From assembly GCA_938074525.1 (NCBI GenBank), contig CALJEX010000040.1:18-64017 (forward strand): DNA of 64,000 nt, written 5' to 3'. Below are positions 7,961-55,316 of the stretch, piece by piece; within the stretch, counting starts at the first letter, position 1, and every line of letters begins with the position of its first letter. A model generated the notes under the pieces. That model saw only the letters and a program-made list of their open reading frames with translations, did no database searches and was not told the origin of the DNA. Both the position numbers and the translations under genes were made by a program. Origin of the DNA: an uncultured Gammaproteobacteria bacterium. Its GTDB lineage: Bacteria > Pseudomonadota > Gammaproteobacteria > UBA4575.

Positions 7961-10485
<2,525 letters not shown>

Positions 10486-37372: not shown

Positions 37373-39448
37373 TTAAGCGGCGCTAGAGAAGTCGTAACCT
37401 AGATTCTCATTAGGTTCGCGGAAAAAGTCACCGCTGACGAAATCAATATTGATTGACCAGATTTGGGATAGTGCTTCTGCAGATTCAACGAATGGTGCAA
37501 TAGTCATAGTGTTTTTCTGTTTCGCTTGTTCGCAGATATGTTTGATATCTTCAATACGTTCTTTATCGCCATTCTTAAGGCTGGCCATAAGCTGGAAGCT
37601 CAGTTTTAAATAGCTAGAAGGAATCATTGATAGAATCTTTTCTGGTTCTTGGCTGATTCCAAACGCATCAATAGCGATCTGACAACCAAGTTGTTTTAAT
37701 CGTGTTGCAAATTCGCGGGCATCTTTTAAGTGACTGACAATGCTTTCTTCGCGCATGTCGAACACTAGCCTAAACGGATCGACATTATTGCTTTGGCATT
37801 GTTTTTCTAACCATGGGGCAAATTGTTGGTCGTTTAAAGCACCGGTAGTTAACTTAATGAAAAACTGGGAGTCAGGGCTTTTGTCTCCATGCTCAGCAAG
37901 TTTCTTGATTGCAGTGGTGACTACCCAGCGATCGAGCATTGCAGACACGCCGGATCTCTCAATACTTGGAAGTAGCTCAGCCACAGAAATTTTTGCACCT
38001 TCTTTGCTGACTAACTGGGTGTAGACTTGGTAACGATCTTCAGTTTTTCCGGTAATGCTAACAACCGGTTGAAATAATAGTAATAATCTATTTTCGCGAA
38101 TCGCATCTTGTAGTTCCTGCGTCCACTTTTGATCAAGCAAAGTGCCCGTTAGGCTGCGTGATTCCTTAGCAAAAATATAAAGCTCTTGTATTTCATTTTC
38201 CCAAGCGTAGTCACATGCTGATTTTGCTGCTGATAGTGCATCTGCAACTTCTTTTAAACTTGGGTCTAGTGGTGTGGCGCCGATGTATAGTTCCGGGGAA
38301 ACCTTTAGATTGTTGATTGTGACAGGGTTGTTGTCAATCGCAGCTCTAAGGCGTGCACCCAATTTAACTAGTTTGTCTTCATCGTTTTTAGGGGTCAGTA
38401 TGCCAAACGATTCATCATTAATTTTTCCAAGTGCTTCCTCGTCGCCACATACTTGTTTAAGTGCGTCTGCAATATGTGAGCCTAGCTTGTCAATTGCACT
38501 GATACCGAATTGATCTTTGATGGTGTCGATATTAGCAATGTCTATCTGAATATAAGTCGATGGAGTTTTTCCACCTTGTGTAGATTCAATCGCTTCTTGA
38601 ATTTTGTCTGTTAGTGACTTCCTGTGGAAGAAGCCAGTTTCATGATCACGTTCGCTGATGTAACTAAGTTGTTCTTGAAGTTCTTTTGACTCGCTTGTTT
38701 GCATATGTAATACAAATTGTACGCAAGTCTCGCCTTCGACTAGTACTGGATTGTATTCAATATCTGTATGGAAATATTCTTCACCAGACTTGAAGTTTAA
38801 ACTAGCAGTTCCAGATGTGCGATTCTTGCTAACATCTTTTAGAATTGATTTTAACGAGGCTTGGTCATCAGGTGAAACTAGTTCGAGAATTGATAGTATG
38901 CTTGCGTCTTCTGCGCCATTGATATCAAATAATTCTAAATACGATGTGTTGGCGTATGTGTGTAAACCTTCATGTATATAACAGATTGCATCACGCGAGG
39001 TATCAAGTATTTTATTGTAACGCTGGTCTAGATCTTTATAGTTGTCGGCTTGGACTTTTAAGTCTTGGATATAGAATTCGGTTTGTGCGAAACGTGAAGT
39101 GGCTTGTTTTAGCTGTTCAGTATCATCGTAAGGCAAAACTATATTGGCGCCGTCGGTGAATAGCTGTGCTTGCTGGCTGGAAACATCTTCACAGAGAGCA
39201 ACAATAGGTGTTTCGTGATTATCAAATTTGAAGCAAGAACGAGCATCTTGAATGCCTAATTCGTCAATATTGTTAGCTTGAATAATAATGTGTGGATTGA
39301 CTTCTAGATTTTTGATCTCTTCAAATTGTTCTTTTGATGAAACAATTGTCTCCCGCACTGCAAAGCCTGACGACTTGATTGTTCTCACAATATTGTCGGC
39401 ATTATTTGCATTTTGGTCTATCACCAAAATTTTTAATATCTGATCCAT
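37373..39448 (-). CDS. FimX-like c-di-GMP receptor: degenerate REC - PAS - degenerate GGDEF (NDESF) - degenerate EAL
   Basis: 691 aa. REC-like N-terminus lacks the phospho-acceptor Asp (HIIIQANNIDE). PAS segment (AICYIHEGLHTYANTSYLELFD). GGDEF fold with RDHETGFFHRKSLT ... IDIANIDTIKDQFG ... NDESFGIL, so GG(D/E)EF is replaced. EAL fold with LLLLFQPVV, but the EAL triad is replaced (YTQL), DDFG becomes IDAFG, and the KxD Asp is lost. Confidence 0.7.
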   Translation of the reverse strand: MDQILKILVIDQNANNADNIVRTIKSSGFAVRETIVSSKEQFEEIKNLEVNPHIIIQANNIDELGIQDARSCFKFDNHETPIVALCEDVSSQQAQLFTDGANIVLPYDDTEQLKQATSRFAQTEFYIQDLKVQADNYKDLDQRYNKILDTSRDAICYIHEGLHTYANTSYLELFDINGAEDASILSILELVSPDDQASLKSILKDVSKNRTSGTASLNFKSGEEYFHTDIEYNPVLVEGETCVQFVLHMQTSESKELQEQLSYISERDHETGFFHRKSLTDKIQEAIESTQGGKTPSTYIQIDIANIDTIKDQFGISAIDKLGSHIADALKQVCGDEEALGKINDESFGILTPKNDEDKLVKLGARLRAAIDNNPVTINNLKVSPELYIGATPLDPSLKEVADALSAAKSACDYAWENEIQELYIFAKESRSLTGTLLDQKWTQELQDAIRENRLLLLFQPVVSITGKTEDRYQVYTQLVSKEGAKISVAELLPSIERSGVSAMLDRWVVTTAIKKLAEHGDKSPDSQFFIKLTTGALNDQQFAPWLEKQCQSNNVDPFRLVFDMREESIVSHLKDAREFATRLKQLGCQIAIDAFGISQEPEKILSMIPSSYLKLSFQLMASLKNGDKERIEDIKHICEQAKQKNTMTIAPFVESAEALSQIWSINIDFVSGDFFREPNENLGYDFSSAA

Positions 39449-39484
39449 GTGCTTAGAGTCTGAGTCCCTTCGGCAAATTTGTTA

Positions 39485-41278
39485 TTATTCTTTGCTGAAT
39501 ATTTTTATCACTTCAATATGTGAGAAACAGCTAGTCTTTTCCAATGTTCTTCCCAGCATCACAGTGCGTTGACTGTTAGAGCCTTTAATGTTTATTTCAC
39601 GCGAATCTAAATTTGAATTAGAAGGTAGTAATAAACTATAGCTTTTACTATTCTCAAAAATTCTTTTAAGTAATAGTCCTTGATATTCTAAGTGAGTATT
39701 ATTTTTGTTATATGCGGTCACGCATGCGCACTCAGCGCCAAAAAGTTCTACTCCCACTTTGTGTTCTTTGTTAGGGAGGCCTTGCATCCATCTAATAATG
39801 CCAACACGCCACTGCAGAGTCTCACGACTTTTATTCTCATCGCGAATAGCAATAATCTCACCAACCCGAGTAGTGCAAATACCGTCTGCTTTGTAGTGTA
39901 GACAGAAGCCTCCAGCATTGAAGTTTTCTACTTGCCATTTGTCTAATGAAGCTACGATGCTAGAATATTTTGCTTGGTCTTGTTGATTGACGTCGGCAGC
40001 ATCTTGCATTCCTTTTTGAACAGCAAATGGATTCCATACATCGCTTAATGTTTCATTAGCTGAAGCTTGGCTTAATGTTTTAGGCGAGCTGGCATTGATG
40101 GTTTCTTCCACTGGTAATAAGGAAAGGCTATTGACCACAAACGAACTCTGATCAGCATAATCGACAGTGTCCTCTGGTTTTGGATTCATTGTTTCTACTA
40201 TGCGCGATAGGCCAATAATCGCACGCACGACTTGGTCGCTTTTGATTCTTTTTTTATGGCGCTGACTTGGGTTGCCAATCATAGTGATTAAACGGCCCGC
40301 TAGTTCAGGATCTAATTCTTCGTTTGACTGTAAATAATAAGAAGTGCTTTGAGCAAACTTCTTGGTTGATTCTGCAAGTTTGCTAACTAATGCCGCGTAA
40401 CCGATAAAGCGATTCTCAGTGGAGATAGGCATTTCTCTGGGAATATAATATGTTGGGTGCTTGCCGGTGGCGAGATTGGCAATATAGATATACTCACCGC
40501 TTAAACTGTCTGTATTAGGTGTGATATCAATTAACTCATGATGCATTTCAAGGAACTTGTTTACTTTGTCGGCCTCACCTTGGCGTAATTGGTTAAATGA
40601 TATTAATGTGAGTGCGCAAAGGTGCTTGAATATATTGATAATCGTGGTTTTTTCTTTTGTTCCGTCTGTGCTGATGAATGCGGTGTGCAATCCATAGTGT
40701 TCTGCTACTCTGTATAGCTGGCAAATGTCATGCCATAGACTTTTAGGTATTTCTTGGTACATTAATAAACTTGCAACATACTGATGTTGCAGATGTGAAA
40801 TAGCATTGTATATGCAATGGAGTAATTTCTTTTGGTCTAGCCTTGCATCGCCTTGTACTACTTCCGATATGATAATCTTGAATGCGATAGCAAGCTCGGA
40901 ATTCATGTTTTGTTGCAGCTGAAATATCTCGGTAGCACTTGGTGACAGCGGGAATGTTTGGCAAGCTAAGTATCTGCGATGATGGTCAAGAAATGTTTTT
41001 GATAATGGTAGTAACAACTCTATTGAAGCAAATCTTTGTTTAACAGGATATGACTGCCGATTACTAGCAGCGATTAACTGGAAGGTTTGTTTGCTCGCGG
41101 TGTCAAGATTGATCATGGGTAACTCTTTGATCCACTTCTTAACTTGGCGCGGGGTAAATGCAATATCCGGCTGTGCCAACGGATCTTGTGTAGGCATATA
41201 GATTTGCATGTCCAATAACATCGAAATAGTTCCCTGCGTGTTTAAATTTTCAACTTTAGATTCTAAAACTTGTACCAA
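39485..41278 (-). CDS. Hypothetical 597-aa soluble protein, no recognisable family; encoded 36 nt upstream of the FimX-like gene
   Basis: Long uninterrupted ORF with typical codon usage and its own AT-rich upstream region (41279..41436). No TM helices, P-loop or metal motifs seen. The C-terminal ~120 aa is beta-rich, with NFNAGG only partly resembling the PilZ (D/N)xSxxG element; no RxxxR. Confidence 0.6.
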   Translation of the reverse strand: MVQVLESKVENLNTQGTISMLLDMQIYMPTQDPLAQPDIAFTPRQVKKWIKELPMINLDTASKQTFQLIAASNRQSYPVKQRFASIELLLPLSKTFLDHHRRYLACQTFPLSPSATEIFQLQQNMNSELAIAFKIIISEVVQGDARLDQKKLLHCIYNAISHLQHQYVASLLMYQEIPKSLWHDICQLYRVAEHYGLHTAFISTDGTKEKTTIINIFKHLCALTLISFNQLRQGEADKVNKFLEMHHELIDITPNTDSLSGEYIYIANLATGKHPTYYIPREMPISTENRFIGYAALVSKLAESTKKFAQSTSYYLQSNEELDPELAGRLITMIGNPSQRHKKRIKSDQVVRAIIGLSRIVETMNPKPEDTVDYADQSSFVVNSLSLLPVEETINASSPKTLSQASANETLSDVWNPFAVQKGMQDAADVNQQDQAKYSSIVASLDKWQVENFNAGGFCLHYKADGICTTRVGEIIAIRDENKSRETLQWRVGIIRWMQGLPNKEHKVGVELFGAECACVTAYNKNNTHLEYQGLLLKRIFENSKSYSLLLPSNSNLDSREINIKGSNSQRTVMLGRTLEKTSCFSHIEVIKIFSKE

Positions 41279-41436
41279 TAAAAAGCGGCTAACTAGTCGC
41301 CTACCTGTCGGCAGTAGCCATCCGTCTATCCTAATTGACGCGAATTAGTGTAATTGTTATCCAATTTGCGGTTTGTGATTGCCTTATCAACCTGAAAATT
41401 TAAATAAAACGACTAACAACTAATAGGTTAGAGATG

Positions 41437-42429
41437 TCAGTAAGATTTGCTGCTTTCACCGGGAATTTCCTGGGCAAGCCTAGGGACTAAATAGCCAGGT
41501 AGGTTATTTTTCATTTGTTGGTGAAGTTTTTTCGCTTGAGTGTCGGAAACCTTGAAATGATGCGTTCCTTTGGCTAGGTCTAGTTTGTGTAAGTAGTAAG
41601 GTAGTATTCCTGCAGCGAATAATTTGTTGGATAAATCAATCAGAATGTCTGCACTGTCATTTACATTTTTTAGTAATACAGATTGATTGAGTGTTGTGGT
41701 ATTTGTTTGTTTTATTTTTTGCACTACATCACAAAATTCTTGGCTGATTTCATCAGCATGATTGATGTGAAACACACATACTTTGTTAAGTGTGCATTCT
41801 GCAAGTGTGGTGATTAAGTTTTCAGTGATGCGTTGTGGAAATATGGATGGAAACTTCGTGTGTAAGCGAATTGTTTTAATGTGTGGAATTTTTTCTATGT
41901 CTTTAAAAAGTTGATTGAGAGATTCATCTTCCAAGCTAAGTGGGTCTCCACCGCTAAGAATGATTTCGTTAATGGATTCGTCCCTTTGACAAAACTCTAG
42001 TGCCTGTTTGAATTGATGAGTATTGGGATTGGATTGTGGATAGGGAAAGTCTTTTCTGAAGCAATAACGGCAATGTATCGGGCAGGTGTTATTGGTGATG
42101 AGTAATACTCGGTGGTTGTATTTTTTGATTACGCCTGGTTGCATAGTTGCCGTGACATCGCCAACTGGGTCGTGGGTGTAGCCTGGGAGATCCGCAAGTT
42201 CTTGCAAACTAGGTAGATATTGCATTAATACTGGACCGTCTAGAGGGTGGTCGTCGAGCAATTGCTGAGATACTTGGATGGGAAATAGCGAATCAATTTT
42301 GTCCAGTTTATCTAGGCTAATTGAATTATCCGGCAGATTATCAGATATTTGTTTAATGCCTACATAGGACTTGGCAAATAATTTTTTCCAATGTAGGGGA
42401 TGTTCTGCTGTTTGCTTGCACGGTATCAT
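41437..42429 (-). CDS. epmB: EF-P beta-lysylation protein EpmB (lysine 2,3-aminomutase-like radical SAM)
   Basis: 330 aa. Radical-SAM cysteine motif CPIHCRYCFRK. Adjacent to efp. Confidence 0.9.
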   Translation of the reverse strand: MIPCKQTAEHPLHWKKLFAKSYVGIKQISDNLPDNSISLDKLDKIDSLFPIQVSQQLLDDHPLDGPVLMQYLPSLQELADLPGYTHDPVGDVTATMQPGVIKKYNHRVLLITNNTCPIHCRYCFRKDFPYPQSNPNTHQFKQALEFCQRDESINEIILSGGDPLSLEDESLNQLFKDIEKIPHIKTIRLHTKFPSIFPQRITENLITTLAECTLNKVCVFHINHADEISQEFCDVVQKIKQTNTTTLNQSVLLKNVNDSADILIDLSNKLFAAGILPYYLHKLDLAKGTHHFKVSDTQAKKLHQQMKNNLPGYLVPRLAQEIPGESSKSY

Positions 42430-42461
42430 GTTGCGTCTTTTAAATTATCTAAATTATCTTT

Positions 42462-43034
42462 ATGGCAAATTACAGCACTAACGAATTCAAGTCAGGTCTT
42501 AAAATCATGCTCGATGGCGATCCTCACACTATCGTAGAGAATGAATTTGTTAAACCTGGAAAAGGCCAGGCCTTTAGTCGAGTTAAGATCCGTAATCTTA
42601 AAACAGGTCGTGTCGTAGACCGTACCTTTAAGTCTGGAGATAGTGTAGAAGGTGCTGATGTCATGGATGTCGATATGCAATATCTATATACCGATGGTGA
42701 ACAATGGCATTTTATGGATCAAAGCACATTTGAACAGCATGCCGCAGATGAAAATGCTGTAGGTGAGACTTATAAGTGGTTGAAAGACCAGGATATCTGC
42801 CAAGTCACACTGTATAACGGTGCGCCTTTGTCAGTGAGTGCGCCTAATTTTGTCGAATTGAAAATCACTCAATCTGATCCTGGTGTAAAAGGTGACACAG
42901 CTCAGGGTGCGACCAAACCAGCAACGCTTGAAACTGGGGCGACCGTAAAAGTCCCTCTGTTTGTCGAAGAGGGTGAAGTGATCAAAATCGATACACGTAC
43001 AGGTGAATACGTGTCTCGGGTAAAAGATAGCTAA
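42462..43034 (+). CDS. efp: Elongation factor P
   Basis: 190 aa. The KPGKGQAF loop carries the modifiable Lys (K34 equivalent). Confidence 0.97.
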
Positions 43035-43048
43035 TTAAGTAAGACTGG

Positions 43049-44008
43049 GTGATGTCTGATTGGCGTCCGACAGCCAGTTTGCACAATCTGGCAAGACGTG
43101 CCGAACTGTTAAATCTGACACGTCGCTTCTTTTCGCAACGTGATGTGCTTGAAGTGGAGACGCCTCTAGCGTGTTCAAATACAGTCACTGAGCCAAATAT
43201 TGAGTCGTTTAGCTTTACTGTCGGTAGCATTAAACGATATCTGCAAACCTCTCCTGAATATGCCATGAAGCGACTACTGGCCGATGGCGCCCCTGATATT
43301 TTCCAAATATGTAAATCGTTTCGCGTGGGTGAGCAAGGCACTGCGCATAATCCAGAATTCACTATGGTTGAATGGTATCGGCGCGGATATAGTTTGAAAC
43401 AAATCATGCAAGAGACTGTTGATCTTATTGTCTCCTTGCTAGCAAAAAGTGATGTGTCAATGAATGTTGAATATATTAGTTATCGTGATTTGACTGAGAA
43501 AGCCTTAGGTGTAGCACTGGACTCACTGACTGAAGATGCGATTAAAAATTTAGCCGCAGACAATGGATTAGTGTTGCAAAGTGATAATTCTTTACAACAA
43601 TGTACCGATTTTTTATTTTCGCATAATGTTGAACCTGCGATGTGCGAACAATCTATCACAGTAGTATTTTACTATCCTGCGACACAGGCAGCGTTGTCTA
43701 AATTAAATGAGGATGACACTTCTGTCGCAGAAAGATTTGAAGTGTTTTATCGGGGAATAGAGTTGGCCAACGGCTATGTTGAGTTGTTAGACTCTGAACA
43801 ACAATTAGATCGTTTTGTGAATGATCAGCAGATTAGAAAGCAGTGTAACTCGATAGAGGTAGGAATAGATCAGCGTTTAATAGACGCGCAACGGCATGGC
43901 CTTCCTGAATGCGCGGGAGTGGCTGTTGGGTTTGATCGTGTAATGATGCTGGCGGTCGGCGCATCTTCGTTAGCAGAAGTAATTAGTTTCGATTGGGATA
44001 ACGCCTAA
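43049..44008 (+). CDS. epmA: EF-P--(R)-beta-lysine ligase EpmA (PoxA/GenX)
   Basis: 319 aa. Class-II LysRS-like core (EFTMVEWYR, ELANGY), colinear with E. coli EpmA. Confidence 0.92.
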   Translation: MMSDWRPTASLHNLARRAELLNLTRRFFSQRDVLEVETPLACSNTVTEPNIESFSFTVGSIKRYLQTSPEYAMKRLLADGAPDIFQICKSFRVGEQGTAHNPEFTMVEWYRRGYSLKQIMQETVDLIVSLLAKSDVSMNVEYISYRDLTEKALGVALDSLTEDAIKNLAADNGLVLQSDNSLQQCTDFLFSHNVEPAMCEQSITVVFYYPATQAALSKLNEDDTSVAERFEVFYRGIELANGYVELLDSEQQLDRFVNDQQIRKQCNSIEVGIDQRLIDAQRHGLPECAGVAVGFDRVMMLAVGASSLAEVISFDWDNA

Positions 44009-50900: not shown

Positions 50901-51923
50901 ATGGCTAAAAAATATGATGTTGCTGTTGTCGGTGCGACAGGTGCTGTCGGCGAGGTAATGCTATCAATTCTCGCGCAGCGTAAATTCCCAGTGGGGAATG
51001 TTTATGCATTAGCTAGTGAGCGTTCAGTAGGTAAACCCGTGCCTTTTGGTGGTCGCTGTTTAGAAGCTCAAGATTTAGCCAAGTTTGATTTTTCTCAAGT
51101 GCAAATCGGGTTATTTTCTCCAGGCGCCTCAGTGTCAGATATTTATGCGCCGATTGCTGCTGAAAAAGGTTGCGTAGTGATCGATAACACTTCCAGATTT
51201 CGATATGAAGATGACATTCCATTGGTTGTCCCCGAGGTTAATCCTCATGCGATTGCGGATTATAAAAATCGCGGGATTATTGCCAACCCAAATTGCTCGA
51301 CCATTCAAATGTTGGTGGCTTTGAAGCCGATTCATGATGCGGTTGGCATTGAGAGAATTAACGTTGCAACCTACCAAGCTGTGTCCGGGACTGGTAAAGA
51401 GGCGATTGATGAATTGGAAGCTCAAACTCAAGCGATTATGGCTAATGAGCCGTTGAATTGTCACGTCTATCCGAAACAAATTGCTTTTAACGCACTGCCA
51501 CATATAGATATATTCCAGGATAACGGATACACCAAGGAAGAGATGAAAATGGTATGGGAAACACACAAGATTATGGGTGATGACAGCATCCGTGTGAATC
51601 CTACCGCCGTCAGAATTCCTGTGAAATTTGGCCACTCCGAAGCCGTACATTTGGAACTTAAAAAGCCAATGACTGCAACACAGGCGAAAGAAGTGTTGGG
51701 CAAAGCGCCAGGGATCGTGGTCATGGACGAGAGACGAGATGGAGGCTATCCCACTGCTGCTACAGATGCAGATGGAACAGATCCAGTGTTTGTTGGCCGC
51801 ATACGAGAAGATATTTCACATCCTAGAGGTCTCAACATGTGGATAGTGAGCGATAACGTGCGAAAAGGGGCCGCTTTAAATAGTATCCAGATCGCAGAAT
51901 TTTTGATCGAAAATCATATATAA
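50901..51923 (+). CDS. asd: Aspartate-semialdehyde dehydrogenase
   Basis: 340 aa. VAVVGATGAVG Rossmann motif and the active-site NPNCSTI. asd-fimV-truA synteny. Confidence 0.95.
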   Translation: MAKKYDVAVVGATGAVGEVMLSILAQRKFPVGNVYALASERSVGKPVPFGGRCLEAQDLAKFDFSQVQIGLFSPGASVSDIYAPIAAEKGCVVIDNTSRFRYEDDIPLVVPEVNPHAIADYKNRGIIANPNCSTIQMLVALKPIHDAVGIERINVATYQAVSGTGKEAIDELEAQTQAIMANEPLNCHVYPKQIAFNALPHIDIFQDNGYTKEEMKMVWETHKIMGDDSIRVNPTAVRIPVKFGHSEAVHLELKKPMTATQAKEVLGKAPGIVVMDERRDGGYPTAATDADGTDPVFVGRIREDISHPRGLNMWIVSDNVRKGAALNSIQIAEFLIENHI

Positions 51924-51984: not shown

Positions 51985-51998
51985 ATTCACTAGTGAAT
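51985..51998. promoter_or_regulatory. Perfect 14-bp palindrome ATTCACTAGTGAAT about 30 nt upstream of the fimV start
   Basis: Self-complementary sequence seen directly in the asd-fimV intergenic region. A GGGGGA Shine-Dalgarno follows at 52015..52020. Confidence 0.3.
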
Positions 51999-52028
51999 AT
52001 ACAAAAAGTAATCATGGGGGATACAAGA

Positions 52029-55000
52029 ATGCATAAGAAGATTGTGGCACTTACCTTATTGGCCACTCTGCTTGTTGGAAGCCCCGGGCTCGTTTTCGCA
52101 TTTGGATTGGGTGAGATCGAAATTAACTCAGCACTCAATCAACCAATGGATGCAGAGATTGATTTGGTAGGTTTCAGCGCAGCCACTATCGATGAAGTTC
52201 AAGTTGAACTGGCAAGCCAACAGATGTTTGAACGAGTTGGTGTACCACGTCCATATATTCTGACTCGCTTGAAGTTCACGCCAATGATCTCCAATGGCAA
52301 ACCAGTTATTAAAGTAACTTCAACTGATGCTGTACGTGAACCCTTCCTTACGTTCCTAGTCGATGTGCGTTGGGCGAAAGGTAAGTTACTTAGAGAATAC
52401 GCAGTAATGCTAGACCCACCAGTATTTGGTGAGAAAGCGAAAGCAACAATCCAAGCGCCAAAGGTAGCAACGCAAGCAGCAAAGCCTGCACCTGTTGCAA
52501 AAAAGCCAGTATCTAAACCACGCACGGTGGTTAATGCTCCAGCACCGAAAGTGCCTGCTCCAAGTGTGCGTCCCAATCAAGCAGCTGTACCCAGTACAGC
52601 ATCTAAACCAGTCCCGCTAAAAAAAACAGATTCCAGGCCAGTTAGACGTGGAGATACTCTTTGGAGTATCGCTGAGCCATATGCGCGTGAGAATGGTGTA
52701 AGCGTTAATCAAATGATGTTGGCTATTCAAGAAGCCAATCCACAAAGTTTCGCGAAAAATAATATTAATAATCTTAAGTCTGGTGTCGTTCTGCGTATTC
52801 CCGCAGATCAAGCGTCAAAATATTCTGCACGTGAAGCACTTGCAGAAGTTCAACGTCAATGGCAAGTATGGAAGCAAGGAACATCAGCTGATTCTGGTGC
52901 CGTGAATGTTGATGCTGGCGATGTGGTTGACAGTGAAGTGATGGAAACTCCTCAACCTGAGCAAGGACAGTCAAAAAGTACCGATTCTTCTTTGTCTATT
53001 TTAGGTGAAGGTGATGCTGCTGATGGTAAAACTGGTGACGATGCTAATGCCACTCTAAAAGAGTTGCGCAGGCAAGTGAGCTTGCTTAAGGAAAACACAG
53101 AATCGAAAGGCCAAGAAAATATTGAGCTTAAAGGCCGTATAGAAACACTCGAATCAATGATTAAAAAGCAGGAAGATATTATTAGCCTGCAGAATGAACA
53201 ATTAGCCCAATTGCAAAATACCCTGGCAACAGATAATTCTGATTCATTGGCACAGCCTGGGGCAGAAGAAAAAGTAATGGATGCTGCTGAACAAGCAGTT
53301 GCAACAGCAGAGAATCAAGTTGAAGAGCTAGCAGCAGAAGTTGATGCTAAATCTGAGCAAGGCATTAAAGCGGCATTGGTTGAGCCGTTGCCTGACTTCT
53401 CTGGTCCAATTCCTGAAGAATTCCTAGCTGCTGAGCAAGAAGCACAAGAAAGTTTGGTTGCACAAGCAGAAGTTGCGCCAAAGGAAATAGCGCCTGTAGA
53501 AACTGTGGCAGAAGTTTCATTTATCGAAAAAATTAAAACAATAATCCAAGATCAAGGTAAGACATTACTATATGCAGGTGGTGCATTGATTGTGCTTCTA
53601 TTGGGTTGGTTAGGCATCAAGCGGCGTAATGCAAATGTAGAAGATAGTAGTCTTGAAGCAAATGGATTGCCGGCTTTTGAAGATGAGCCGTCAATAGATG
53701 AAATGCTTGATGACACTGTTGTTGCTACGACTGATGATAATGTTGATGAAGTGTTAGATGATCTTGAAACTGTCGATGCACAAGGTGAGCCAGAGGAAAG
53801 TGTATTTGTTGGTGAGGATCCGAATGCGCCTGTAGCTAGTGATGATGTATTGGCTGAGGCCGACGTCTACATTTCTTACGGCTTATATCAACAAGCAGAA
53901 GAGCTTCTAAAAGAAGGTCTGGTCAAAGAGCCTGATAATGCAAATTACCAAGTAAAATTAGCCGAAATTTATTACGCTGATAAGAAGTCTGATGAATTTG
54001 TGCAACATGTAGAAGCGATGGAATCCGGTATGGATAAGCAATCGCCTGAGTGGGCTAAAATCGCTTCGTTAGGCGCAGCACTAGTCCCAGCACATGCTTT
54101 ATTTGCAGGGGCAGATGGATCATCGGCTGTCGCCGACGAAACACCTGCGTTTGCTGCAGATTCAACAGAAGACGTTGCAGAAACCGAAACCGATGACATA
54201 AGTGATTTCAGTATGGCTTCCGAAGATATGGAAGACTTTGATAGCGATGATCTTGACGACAACTCGCTTGATTTCACTTTCGATGATGATGGTGAGTTAA
54301 GTGATGGTGTATCTCAAGCTCTTGAAGATTCGTCAGCTGACGAAACACAGGCATTTGCAGCAGATCCAGAAGAAGACATACTAGAAGAGTCTTCTACCGC
54401 AATACTCGAAGCAGGATTGGATTTTGAAGATAATGATGCATCTACTGCCAGTTCTGGTGCTGATGATGAAACGTTAGCATTTGATAGTAATGATGTGGGT
54501 TCATCAAACGAGACAAGTGATGACAATGATGTGTTCTTGGACTTTGATGGGGATGCGTTAGAGAATGAATTGAATTCTTCAGTGGGTCATGATGGTGAGA
54601 CAGAAATGCTAGATGCGTCGTTGCTAACAGGATCAGATGCGGATTTAGATCTTGATGATGCGATTGATCTTGGTGATGATTTGAATACTGAATCTACTAA
54701 TGTGGGTATTAAAATCGATAACGATCTTGATGATATGTTGGATGGTGAGAATTCAGAGACAGCAATGTTTGATAGTTCTTTGTTTGATGTGAATAGCCCT
54801 GAAGCTAAGGCTTTCGCAGGCGGAGACGAAAGTGAGCGTGTTGATGAAGATACGGTAAGTCTAGAACAAGTACAGGAGAATCTAACAGCAGAACTTGAAA
54901 CATTAAGCTTCGATCCTTATGATATTGACCCTGAGAACATGGAAGAAGATTCACTGCCGACATTGCAGACTTCTGAGCTCGGTAAGCCGGATCTAGATAT

Positions 55001-55316
55001 TGATGATCTAAATGAGAGTTTAACTGCTAGCGAAACCGGTACGTTTGAAAAAGATATGCTTACAGATGATGTTACTGAGCAATTTGATGTCGGTAATATT
55101 GATTCAACCATGACTGATCTCGGTGAATTCGGAGATGATTATGAGTTAGAGAATCCATCTGTGATTGAAGAGGTTGGAACAAAGTTAGACTTAGCTAAAG
55201 CTTTCGTTGATATGGGTGATGAGGATGCTGCCAAAGAGACTCTCACTGAAGTGATGGAGCAGGGCGACTCAACTCAAATCCAACAAGCAAAGGATTTGCT
55301 AGATAAGTTAAATTAA
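52029..55316 (+). CDS. fimV: Peptidoglycan-binding (LysM) pilus/polar-organising protein FimV/HubP family
   Basis: Start moved to ATG 52029 (signal peptide MHKKIVALTLLATLLVGSPGLVFA; SD GGGGGA upstream); the track ORF starts at GTG 51993. FimV N-terminal motif FGLGEIEINSALNQP. LysM (RRGDTLWSIAE...LKSGVVLRIP). Coiled coil. One TM (LLYAGGALIVLLLGWLGI). Very acidic repetitive cytoplasmic region. Conserved FimV C-terminal motif LDLAKAFVDMGDEDAAKETLTEVMEQGD. Confidence 0.82.
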   Translation: MHKKIVALTLLATLLVGSPGLVFAFGLGEIEINSALNQPMDAEIDLVGFSAATIDEVQVELASQQMFERVGVPRPYILTRLKFTPMISNGKPVIKVTSTDAVREPFLTFLVDVRWAKGKLLREYAVMLDPPVFGEKAKATIQAPKVATQAAKPAPVAKKPVSKPRTVVNAPAPKVPAPSVRPNQAAVPSTASKPVPLKKTDSRPVRRGDTLWSIAEPYARENGVSVNQMMLAIQEANPQSFAKNNINNLKSGVVLRIPADQASKYSAREALAEVQRQWQVWKQGTSADSGAVNVDAGDVVDSEVMETPQPEQGQSKSTDSSLSILGEGDAADGKTGDDANATLKELRRQVSLLKENTESKGQENIELKGRIETLESMIKKQEDIISLQNEQLAQLQNTLATDNSDSLAQPGAEEKVMDAAEQAVATAENQVEELAAEVDAKSEQGIKAALVEPLPDFSGPIPEEFLAAEQEAQESLVAQAEVAPKEIAPVETVAEVSFIEKIKTIIQDQGKTLLYAGGALIVLLLGWLGIKRRNANVEDSSLEANGLPAFEDEPSIDEMLDDTVVATTDDNVDEVLDDLETVDAQGEPEESVFVGEDPNAPVASDDVLAEADVYISYGLYQQAEELLKEGLVKEPDNANYQVKLAEIYYADKKSDEFVQHVEAMESGMDKQSPEWAKIASLGAALVPAHALFAGADGSSAVADETPAFAADSTEDVAETETDDISDFSMASEDMEDFDSDDLDDNSLDFTFDDDGELSDGVSQALEDSSADETQAFAADPEEDILEESSTAILEAGLDFEDNDASTASSGADDETLAFDSNDVGSSNETSDDNDVFLDFDGDALENELNSSVGHDGETEMLDASLLTGSDADLDLDDAIDLGDDLNTESTNVGIKIDNDLDDMLDGENSETAMFDSSLFDVNSPEAKAFAGGDESERVDEDTVSLEQVQENLTAELETLSFDPYDIDPENMEEDSLPTLQTSELGKPDLDIDDLNESLTASETGTFEKDMLTDDVTEQFDVGNIDSTMTDLGEFGDDYELENPSVIEEVGTKLDLAKAFVDMGDEDAAKETLTEVMEQGDSTQIQQAKDLLDKLN

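Follow-up and report, generated by a model that had tools for sequence, protein, structure and literature searches.

A probable divergent FimW orthologue encoded upstream of a fimX gene in an uncultured gammaproteobacterium

The gene located directly upstream of a fimX gene in the window (the whole stretch of 64,000 nt that was analysed, from an uncultured gammaproteobacterium) probably encodes a divergent orthologue of FimW, a known protein family, and is paired with fimX as in Pseudomonas aeruginosa; we put the probability of this reading at roughly 0.78. The gene pair is the known fimW–fimX module and not a new one. The original prediction had described the upstream product as an orphan that could not be placed in any family and the pair as a candidate new signalling module. 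Neither description was sustained, since a protein identical to the window protein matches FimW_N, the homology to P. aeruginosa PA4958 extends over the full length, and the fimW–fimX pair has already been described in P. aeruginosa (PMC11656802). The features discussed below are listed in Table 1.

Table 1. Positions in the window of the fimW and fimX orthologues, their parts and nearby features.
Feature	Position	Strand	Remarks
fimW orthologue	39485..41221	−	578 aa from ATG at 41221
FimW_N, N-terminal region (residues 24–345)	40187..41152	−	
RxxxR, R321-H-K-K-R325	40247..40261	−	putative c-di-GMP-binding arginine pair
Variable, predicted-disordered linker between RxxxR and PilZ barrel (residues 350–418)	39968..40174	−	pLDDT <50
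Predicted C-terminal PilZ-fold beta barrel (residues 428–575)	39497..39940	−	
N433-F-N-A-G-G438	39908..39925	−	family (D/N)xSxxG with Ser replaced by Asn
fimW–fimX spacer	39449..39484	−	36 nt, without terminator-like site
Conserved region upstream of fimW	41222..41436	−	215 nt, conserved among relatives
fimX orthologue	37373..39448	−	691 aa; degenerate receiver-like N-terminus, PAS, degenerate GGDEF, degenerate EAL
Degenerate GGDEF, NDESF	38405..38419	−	
Degenerate EAL, YQVYTQL	38012..38032	−	
fimV (polar type IV pilus organiser)	51993..55316	+	Pfam FimV_N 3.3e-37 and TPR_19

Family placement of the upstream gene

The public protein that is 100% identical to the window protein (P0001) carries a precomputed match to the Pfam model PF27104 (FimW_N), the contigs carrying the window protein (L082 and L083) have a precomputed FimW_N match at E ≤ 1e-5, and PF27104 was present in 47 of a further 51 relatives. 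In the P. aeruginosa locus (L081) fimX is directly preceded by a gene of 607 aa that carries FimW_N and FimW_C (PF27125), and this gene, recognised by its two domains and its place next to fimX, served as the P. aeruginosa FimW query. BLASTP of the window protein against it (PA4958/FimW) gave an E value of 2e-29, residues 3–570 being aligned with 8–571, and hhalign returned a probability of 100% and an E value of 1.8e-50 over 558 columns. The identity to the characterised P. aeruginosa FimW is only 21%, so that the transfer of function spans a wide gap in sequence. No PF27125 match was recorded on the identical public protein or on most relatives at least 59% identical, and this model was recorded on relatives at 68, 52, 48, 31 and 24–27% identity; despite the missing FimW_C record, the C-terminal region of the window protein aligns with P. 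aeruginosa FimW.

An uncharacterised new family, whose member here would make up a new signalling module together with the dead GGDEF-EAL partner, has very little probability. It would be in agreement with the lack of any match of the window protein in the Pfam-A and NCBIfam copies scanned, and with the PDB sequence search, in which the family profile matched no chain at E ≤ 10. However, P. aeruginosa FimW, run as a control, also gave zero matches in the same Pfam copy, the blanks thus being due to library copies that contain no FimW models. Moreover, the identical protein is assigned to FimW_N by newer precomputed Pfam models, the alignment with PA4958 is significant from end to end, and the pair was already known. 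There appears to be no deposited FimW structure.

The FimW family is large, the profile retrieving 4,727 cluster representatives (50% identity level) at E ≤ 1e-3; repetition of the word-indexed protein search with the profile gave the same 52 proteins, and hardly any names came from a look-up of the clusters of 10 distant representatives. Motif counts given below refer to 193 family members, most of which share a C-terminal peptide motif. The primary FimW paper is reportedly that of Laventie et al. 2019. According to the original prediction, a confident profile match to a characterised family with no relation to c-di-GMP signalling would have told against it; the match obtained removes the novelty and, the family being related to c-di-GMP, leaves the functional guess in place.

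Gene extent, upstream region and neighbourhood

The upstream gene had been read as a 597-aa ORF from a TTG start (39485..41278, minus strand). The ORF itself was confirmed and, judged by its homologues, is real and conserved far beyond chance, while its length was revised: fimW most probably begins with the ATG at 41221, which gives 578 aa. The TTG start was rejected because homologues begin at the MLLDMQIYMP segment, the identical protein is called with 578 aa in public data, and in relatives the stretch between TTG and ATG contains a 1-nt indel and an in-frame stop. In addition, a Shine-Dalgarno-like AGGGA is found 9 nt 5′ of the ATG.

The 215-nt region upstream of this ATG is presumably promoter and leader, and showed a mean column identity of 85% in six loci with FimW proteins 68–94% identical. 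An AT-rich, promoter-like region had been proposed here; its GC content is 36.7% versus 41.7% for the whole window, and no sigma-70 consensus match was found in it on the fimW strand, but its conservation among relatives is strong. An Rfam search of the 215-nt region yielded no credible family match and covariation within it was unsupported, and a c-di-GMP riboswitch or other known RNA at this place was rejected on these two negative results.

The distance from the end of fimW to the start of the 691-aa PAS-GGDEF-EAL gene on the same strand is exactly 36 nt, as originally stated. A terminator-like site was looked for between the two genes and none was found; they are probably co-transcribed. 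The corresponding spacer is of 64 nt in P. aeruginosa and of about 40–200 nt in most other loci, with a maximum of about 590 nt. Conserved linkage of the pair in related genomes, on which the original prediction depended, was observed: of 70 informative loci (those with enough downstream DNA), 69 have a co-oriented FimX-like gene immediately downstream of fimW. This near-universal linkage in the sampled gammaproteobacteria supports a functional coupling of FimW and FimX. The gene order psd / epmA-efp / epmB–fimW–fimX / htpX–parC holds down to 23% FimW identity, and in P. aeruginosa the order is psd–fimW–fimX with parC nearby. The fimV gene is also in the window, approximately 10.7 kb away from the gene pair, and is mentioned as context only.

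Domain architecture and the putative c-di-GMP site of FimW

The fold of the window FimW was analysed on an AlphaFold2 model (pLDDT 74.8, pTM 0.71). Within the FimW_N region, residues 24–226 are all-helical in the model with pLDDT mostly of 80–95, and residues 230–345 form a mixed alpha/beta part with the RxxxR motif at its end. A generic two-domain PilZ receptor of the YcgR/PlzD type, with a non-pilus target such as the flagellar motor and a GGDEF-EAL neighbour by chance, is very unlikely, as the N-terminal 225 residues are modelled as all-helical with no YcgR-N/PilZN barrel, the FimW homology spans the full length, and adjacency to fimX in nearly all informative loci is not a coincidence.

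The C-terminus is predicted by the model to be a PilZ-fold barrel. A beta-rich domain of about 120 residues had been noticed at this end, and a PilZ-like barrel was to be sought by structure prediction; in the model the last ~150 residues are beta-rich and adopt such a barrel. The Pfam PilZ model matched neither the full protein at E ≤ 1 nor its C-terminal 161 aa at E ≤ 10, and P. aeruginosa FimW likewise gave no match. The NFNAGG sequence, likened in the original prediction to half of a PilZ-type site, corresponds to the family (D/N)xSxxG motif with Asn in place of Ser and aligns with N-H-S-P-G-G of P. aeruginosa FimW. The RxxxR half, thought to be absent, is present about 107 residues upstream; its counterpart in the alignment with P. 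aeruginosa FimW is R-T-F-Q-R, and neither arginine varies in 193/193 family members. The motif, whose model confidence is low (pLDDT <50 at residues 320–322), may take part in ligand binding.

In canonical PilZ domains RxxxR stands directly before the first strand, and the usual spacing between RxxxR and (D/N)xSxxG is about 20–30 residues. The PilZ site of the FimW family is split, the invariant RxxxR being separated by approximately 60–160 residues from the barrel. Between the two motifs there are 61–158 aa in the family (median 107) and 107 in the window protein, and the linker included in this segment is poorly conserved and varies in length among FimW members. The (D/N)xSxxG columns (n = 193) contain N in 167 and D in 25 members at the first position, S in 169, N in 21 and G in three at the third, and G in all 193 at the last. 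The Asn-for-Ser variant is limited to members at least 68% identical to the window protein. Ser is kept in three proteins 74–77% identical to it (P0014, P0016 and P0021) and in the locus L006 (78%), and the Ser-to-Asn change is therefore recent and may be neutral.

The window FimW lacks the C-terminal acidic tail ending in FDxLW(S/K)SL, which in P. aeruginosa FimW comprises about 30 residues and ends in DFDSLWKSL. No member with at least 30% identity to the window protein has the tail, and P0057 (30% identity) is the most distant one that clearly lacks it. The strict motif FDxLWSSL occurs in 101 of the 193 members and near-variants in many more; the tail was found in 52/52 complete distant loci with canonical FimX and in nearly all distant members. 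From this conservation, the tail may be a defining feature of FimW.

The FimX partner, proposed function and comparison with known systems

By sequence, the downstream gene is a FimX orthologue, as expected from the original description of a degenerate FimX-like protein. Its product has Pfam PAS, GGDEF and EAL matches, P. aeruginosa FimX entries take the first four places in the PDB sequence search (4j40 with 1.3e-56, 3hv9, 3hv8 and 4afy), and the Xanthomonas FimX entries 7lkq and 4foj also match. In FimX of the window lineage YQVYTQ replaces YEVLxR, with QVY in place of EAL/EVL, and in P. aeruginosa numbering E475, L477, R479 and Y673 are replaced by Q, Y, Q and D, respectively, in 8/8 lineage sequences. 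Outside this lineage E, L/F and R are kept in 55–57 of 57 FimX sequences. D507 is kept across the window lineage and in 57/57 others, and E654 is kept in the window lineage, its column being poorly aligned in other loci. The c-di-GMP contacts in P. aeruginosa FimX are L477, R479, D507, E654 and Y673 (PMC3527489), and an EVL-to-AAA FimX mutant is non-functional (PMC12533971).

[quoted passage not shown] The phenotypes of P. aeruginosa fimW mutants disagree between studies, one mutant twitching like the wild type (PMC12288467) and another showing no visible pili with twitching kept (2026 preprint). By analogy with P. aeruginosa FimW, the family would be a c-di-GMP family, in line with the part in c-di-GMP control of type IV pili originally proposed for the module. 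[quoted passage not shown] Since FimX has lost the L477, R479 and Y673 contacts, together with E475, FimW seems the likelier c-di-GMP sensor of the pair in the window lineage.

It is unlikely, although less so than the new-family and YcgR/PlzD-type readings, that the protein is derived from FimW and has lost c-di-GMP sensing, the pair acting as a ligand-independent pilus scaffold or adaptor or responding to another ligand. The clade-restricted Ser-to-Asn change (21/193 members), the loss of the conserved tail, the replacement in FimX of E475 and of three ligand-contacting residues, and the non-functional EVL-to-AAA FimX mutant would be in agreement with such a loss. Substitutions of conserved residues in the PilZ domain of Alg44, including S46A, were tested for loss of c-di-GMP binding (review PMC12564702). 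On the other hand, the RxxxR arginines and, in the second motif, the Asn/Asp and the two glycines are kept under evident selection, Asn can both donate and accept hydrogen bonds in place of Ser, the retention of Ser in close relatives marks the change as recent and possibly neutral, and D507 of FimX is retained throughout.

A more speculative and rather improbable idea is that the EAL pocket of FimX is normally a docking site for the FimW tail, or is regulated by it, and that the lineage was rewired so that FimW is the sole c-di-GMP sensor, or neither protein is one. It is drawn from the coincidence of tail loss, Ser-to-Asn change and loss of the FimX E, L and R residues in one lineage, together with the conserved adjacency. 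If true, it would mean a direct FimW–FimX coupling, beyond what has been demonstrated in P. aeruginosa; FimW is not known to interact functionally with either FimX or PilB (PMC11656802). Joint loss of the tail and of EVLxR was rejected as evidence of co-evolution, as it represents a single lineage and one event, and as in one locus (L010) E and R of EVLxR are gone but the tail is kept. This marine lineage without the tail and without the FimX EVLxR residues is a natural variant for asking which of the two proteins reads c-di-GMP.

The window FimW resembles P. aeruginosa FimW in size (578 versus 607 aa, collinear over the whole protein), in the matching positions of RxxxR and (D/N)xSxxG with a spacer of ~106–107 residues in both, and in its gene neighbourhood, with fimX immediately downstream in the same orientation and psd and parC close by. 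It differs in having NFNAGG instead of NHSPGG, in the absence of the acidic tail and of a recorded FimW_C match, and in a FimX partner devoid of the EVLxR residues. In comparison with the canonical PilZ receptors PA0012/TssZ, YcgR, PlzD/VCA0042, MapZ/PA4608, Alg44 and the BcsA PilZ domain, the window FimW gives no Pfam PilZ match at a threshold as loose as E ≤ 10, carries an insert of about 107 residues, largely disordered, between RxxxR and the barrel, and combines this barrel in a fusion with a large helical N-terminal domain that is confined to FimW. The Xanthomonas PilZ–FimX–PilB system is similar in that a PilZ-fold protein is tied to a degenerate GGDEF-EAL FimX in type IV pilus extension (PMC11656802). 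The Xanthomonas PilZ is small and single-domain, its complexes with FimX were crystallised and in vitro PilB joins them in a ternary complex, whereas FimW is a protein of about 600 aa that binds c-di-GMP itself.

Identification of the protein as FimW

The product of the minus-strand ORF at 39485..41278, which the original prediction had presented as an unrecognisable protein in a candidate new signalling module, matched no family in the local Pfam-A and NCBIfam copies, and no PDB chain was matched by a profile of its family. In precomputed annotation, PF27104 was found on a public protein 100% identical to it and on 47 of the 51 further relatives recovered, and PF27125 on some; both are newer Pfam accessions not contained in the local copy. 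P. aeruginosa FimW, scanned against the local Pfam copy as a control, likewise gave no match, and the earlier lack of matches is therefore due to what the library contains, not to novelty.

The P. aeruginosa FimX GGDEF-EAL sequence taken from the 4j40 alignment led to full-length FimX (P0218) and from there to its genomic locus (L081). A 607-aa gene annotated as PF27104:FimW_N plus PF27125:FimW_C is located there 64 nt directly upstream of fimX on the same strand; PF27104:FimW_N was also found on the window protein's own contigs. BLASTP aligned the window protein collinearly with P. aeruginosa FimW (residues 3–570 and 8–571, E 2e-29, 21% identity), and hhalign of A1, the family alignment of 15 sequences, against the same protein gave a probability of 100% (E 1.8e-50, 558 columns). 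The FimW family is large and established: in an exhaustive HMMER search 4,727 cluster representatives matched at E ≤ 1e-3, of which 1,984 reached E ≤ 1e-30, and nearly all were about 570–630 aa long, with the match spanning the whole protein. The pair in the window is orthologous to the known FimW-FimX pair but divergent from it, and the claim of novelty is refuted by FimW_N on the identical protein and by the full-length homology to P. aeruginosa FimW.

Start codon, gene order and upstream region

As originally described, the ORF ends 36 nt before the start of the co-oriented 691-aa FimX-like gene (37373..39448). Co-transcription of fimW and fimX is plausible, because no terminator-like site was found between them. 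The frame is indeed open for 597 aa from a TTG codon, but this start is probably wrong, and the ATG at 41221 is the likely start codon. Homologues begin with MLLDMQIYMP, the 100%-identical protein has 578 aa in public gene calls, an AGGGA Shine-Dalgarno-like sequence is located 9 nt upstream of the ATG, and in relatives the TTG-to-ATG stretch (window 41222..41278) has not been kept as coding DNA, containing a 1-nt indel, with an in-frame stop at one related locus (L005). For these reasons the gene was taken as 39485..41221 (578 aa), and residues are numbered from this ATG. Over-long versions of 596–619 aa are annotated in several public records.

Scanning of species-representative genomes gave 80 fimW loci, all from uncultured Gammaproteobacteria (labels among them Thiotrichales, Chromatiales and Thiohalophilus), and their neighbours were detected by tblastn with the window's neighbouring proteins. 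The conserved linkage of the gene pair that had been looked for in related genomes was found: a FimX-like gene lies immediately downstream of fimW on the same strand in 69/80 loci, or 69 of the 70 informative ones, the 10 loci whose sequence stops a few hundred bases or less from fimW being uninformative and left out. An asparaginase II gene takes its place in the sole informative locus truly without a downstream fimX (L045, 1/70), where FimW (8001..9737) has an atypical motif, NVSAAGFGL, plus RKSGR. The order psd / epmA-efp / epmB-fimW-fimX / htpX-parC is kept down to 23% FimW identity. A complete EF-P modification set (41437..44008) is located directly upstream of fimW, an arrangement kept in almost all 80 related loci. 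The FimV claimed for the window is also present, as a homologue about 10.7 kb from fimW.

The region upstream of fimW had been called AT-rich and promoter-like. Its GC content is lower than that of the window (36.7% vs 41.7%), and no sigma-70 consensus match was found on the gene's strand. The 215-nt stretch from epmB to the fimW ATG is 85% identical across six loci with FimW proteins 68–94% identical and contains long invariant blocks; no Rfam family matched it, and its consensus fold had no covariation support. It is probably regulatory, a conserved promoter, operator or leader.

Features of the window at and around fimW
Feature	Position	Strand	Basis or remark
fimW upstream intergenic region, epmB to fimW ATG	41222..41436	minus	215 nt
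epmB	41437..42429	minus	EF-P modification set
efp	42462..43034	plus	EF-P modification set
epmA	43049..44008	plus	EF-P modification set
asd	50901..51923		followed by fimV
fimV homologue	51993..55316	plus	FimV_N 3.3e-37 and TPR
FimW all-helical domain	residues 24–226		AlphaFold2, well predicted
FimW mixed alpha/beta segment	residues 230–345		AlphaFold2
FimW disordered stretch	residues 350–418		AlphaFold2, pLDDT below 50
FimW beta barrel	residues 428–575		AlphaFold2
FimW RxxxR, RHKKR (R321, R325)	40247..40261	minus	alignment of 193
FimW NFNAGG, (D/N)xSxxG with Ser to Asn	39908..39925	minus	alignment of 193
FimW tail-less C-terminus	39485..39500	minus	related loci L001–L009 vs L010–L080 and P. aeruginosa L081
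FimX-like YQVYTQL	38012..38032	minus	alignment with FimX orthologues
FimX-like residue aligned with Y673	near 37430	minus	D in window lineage

Motifs of FimW and its FimX partner

The AlphaFold2 model of window FimW (pLDDT 74.8, pTM 0.71) has four parts. In an alignment of 193 family members, P. aeruginosa FimW among them, the RxxxR motif thought to be absent was found as RHKKR, its two arginines invariant (193/193), at about 107 residues from the barrel (family range 61–158, median 107); the usual spacing in PilZ domains is about 20–30 residues. At position 433, 167 members have N and 25 have D; at position 435 the counts are 169 S, 21 N and 3 G, and G438 is invariant. NFNAGG, whose partial likeness to (D/N)xSxxG had been rightly noticed, is therefore the family's motif with Ser replaced by Asn, a replacement limited to members that share at least 68% identity with the window protein. 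In P. aeruginosa FimW and the majority of distant members, the protein ends in an acidic tail whose last residues form a motif like F-D-x-L-W-S-S-L (strict pattern in 101/193, near-variants in many more); the window protein and every member at least 30% identical to it stop 1–12 residues past the barrel.

The downstream protein contains PAS, GGDEF and EAL domains, and its best solved-structure match was P. aeruginosa FimX 4j40 (1.3e-56), with NDESF aligned to GDSIF and QVY to EVL. Q, Y, Q and D stand at P. aeruginosa positions E475, L477, R479 and Y673 in the window lineage, which for FimX is the window plus seven close relatives among loci L001–L009 (L004 and L006 gave no usable FimX); the E, L/F and R of EVLxR are kept in 55–57 of the 57 other orthologues. 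Of the five c-di-GMP-contacting residues reported for P. aeruginosa FimX (PMC3527489), three are among those changed, namely L477, R479 and Y673, and an EVL-to-AAA FimX mutant was non-functional (PMC12533971). With such residues changed, window FimX may have weak c-di-GMP binding or none, and FimW may be the likelier c-di-GMP sensor of the pair in this lineage. The Ser-to-Asn replacement, the tail loss and the FimX EVLxR/Y673 changes are three differences of a single lineage, that is, one evolutionary event, and one related locus (L010) has lost the E and R of EVLxR and kept the tail. For both reasons the coincidence of tail loss with EVLxR loss is to be taken as a lead, not as evidence for co-evolution.

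Proposed role and comparison with P. aeruginosa

Published work describes FimW as a protein that binds c-di-GMP, is encoded with FimX and is needed for optimal surface piliation; its polar accumulation on surface contact is c-di-GMP-dependent, and it is recruited to the poles, stimulating type IV pilus assembly there (PMC10212136). Reviews count it among PilZ-domain effectors (PMC12564702), its mechanism has been stated to be unknown (PMC7519303; PMC6581867), and fimW mutant phenotypes are inconsistent between studies. From homology at 21% identity, the best explanation for the window protein is that it acts as a c-di-GMP effector, and the original functional guess, that a PilZ-like c-di-GMP protein acts on type IV pili together with FimX, was a good one. 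The nucleotide would be bound by the invariant RxxxR and the PilZ barrel, binding would lead to polar recruitment of window FimW, and the ligand-bound protein would stimulate pilus assembly.

The lineage-specific variations are minor and could merit a biochemical test. The P. aeruginosa locus has the order psd-fimW-fimX with parC nearby, like that of the window, and P. aeruginosa FimW ends in ...EEDFDSLWKSL, whereas window FimW is without this tail.
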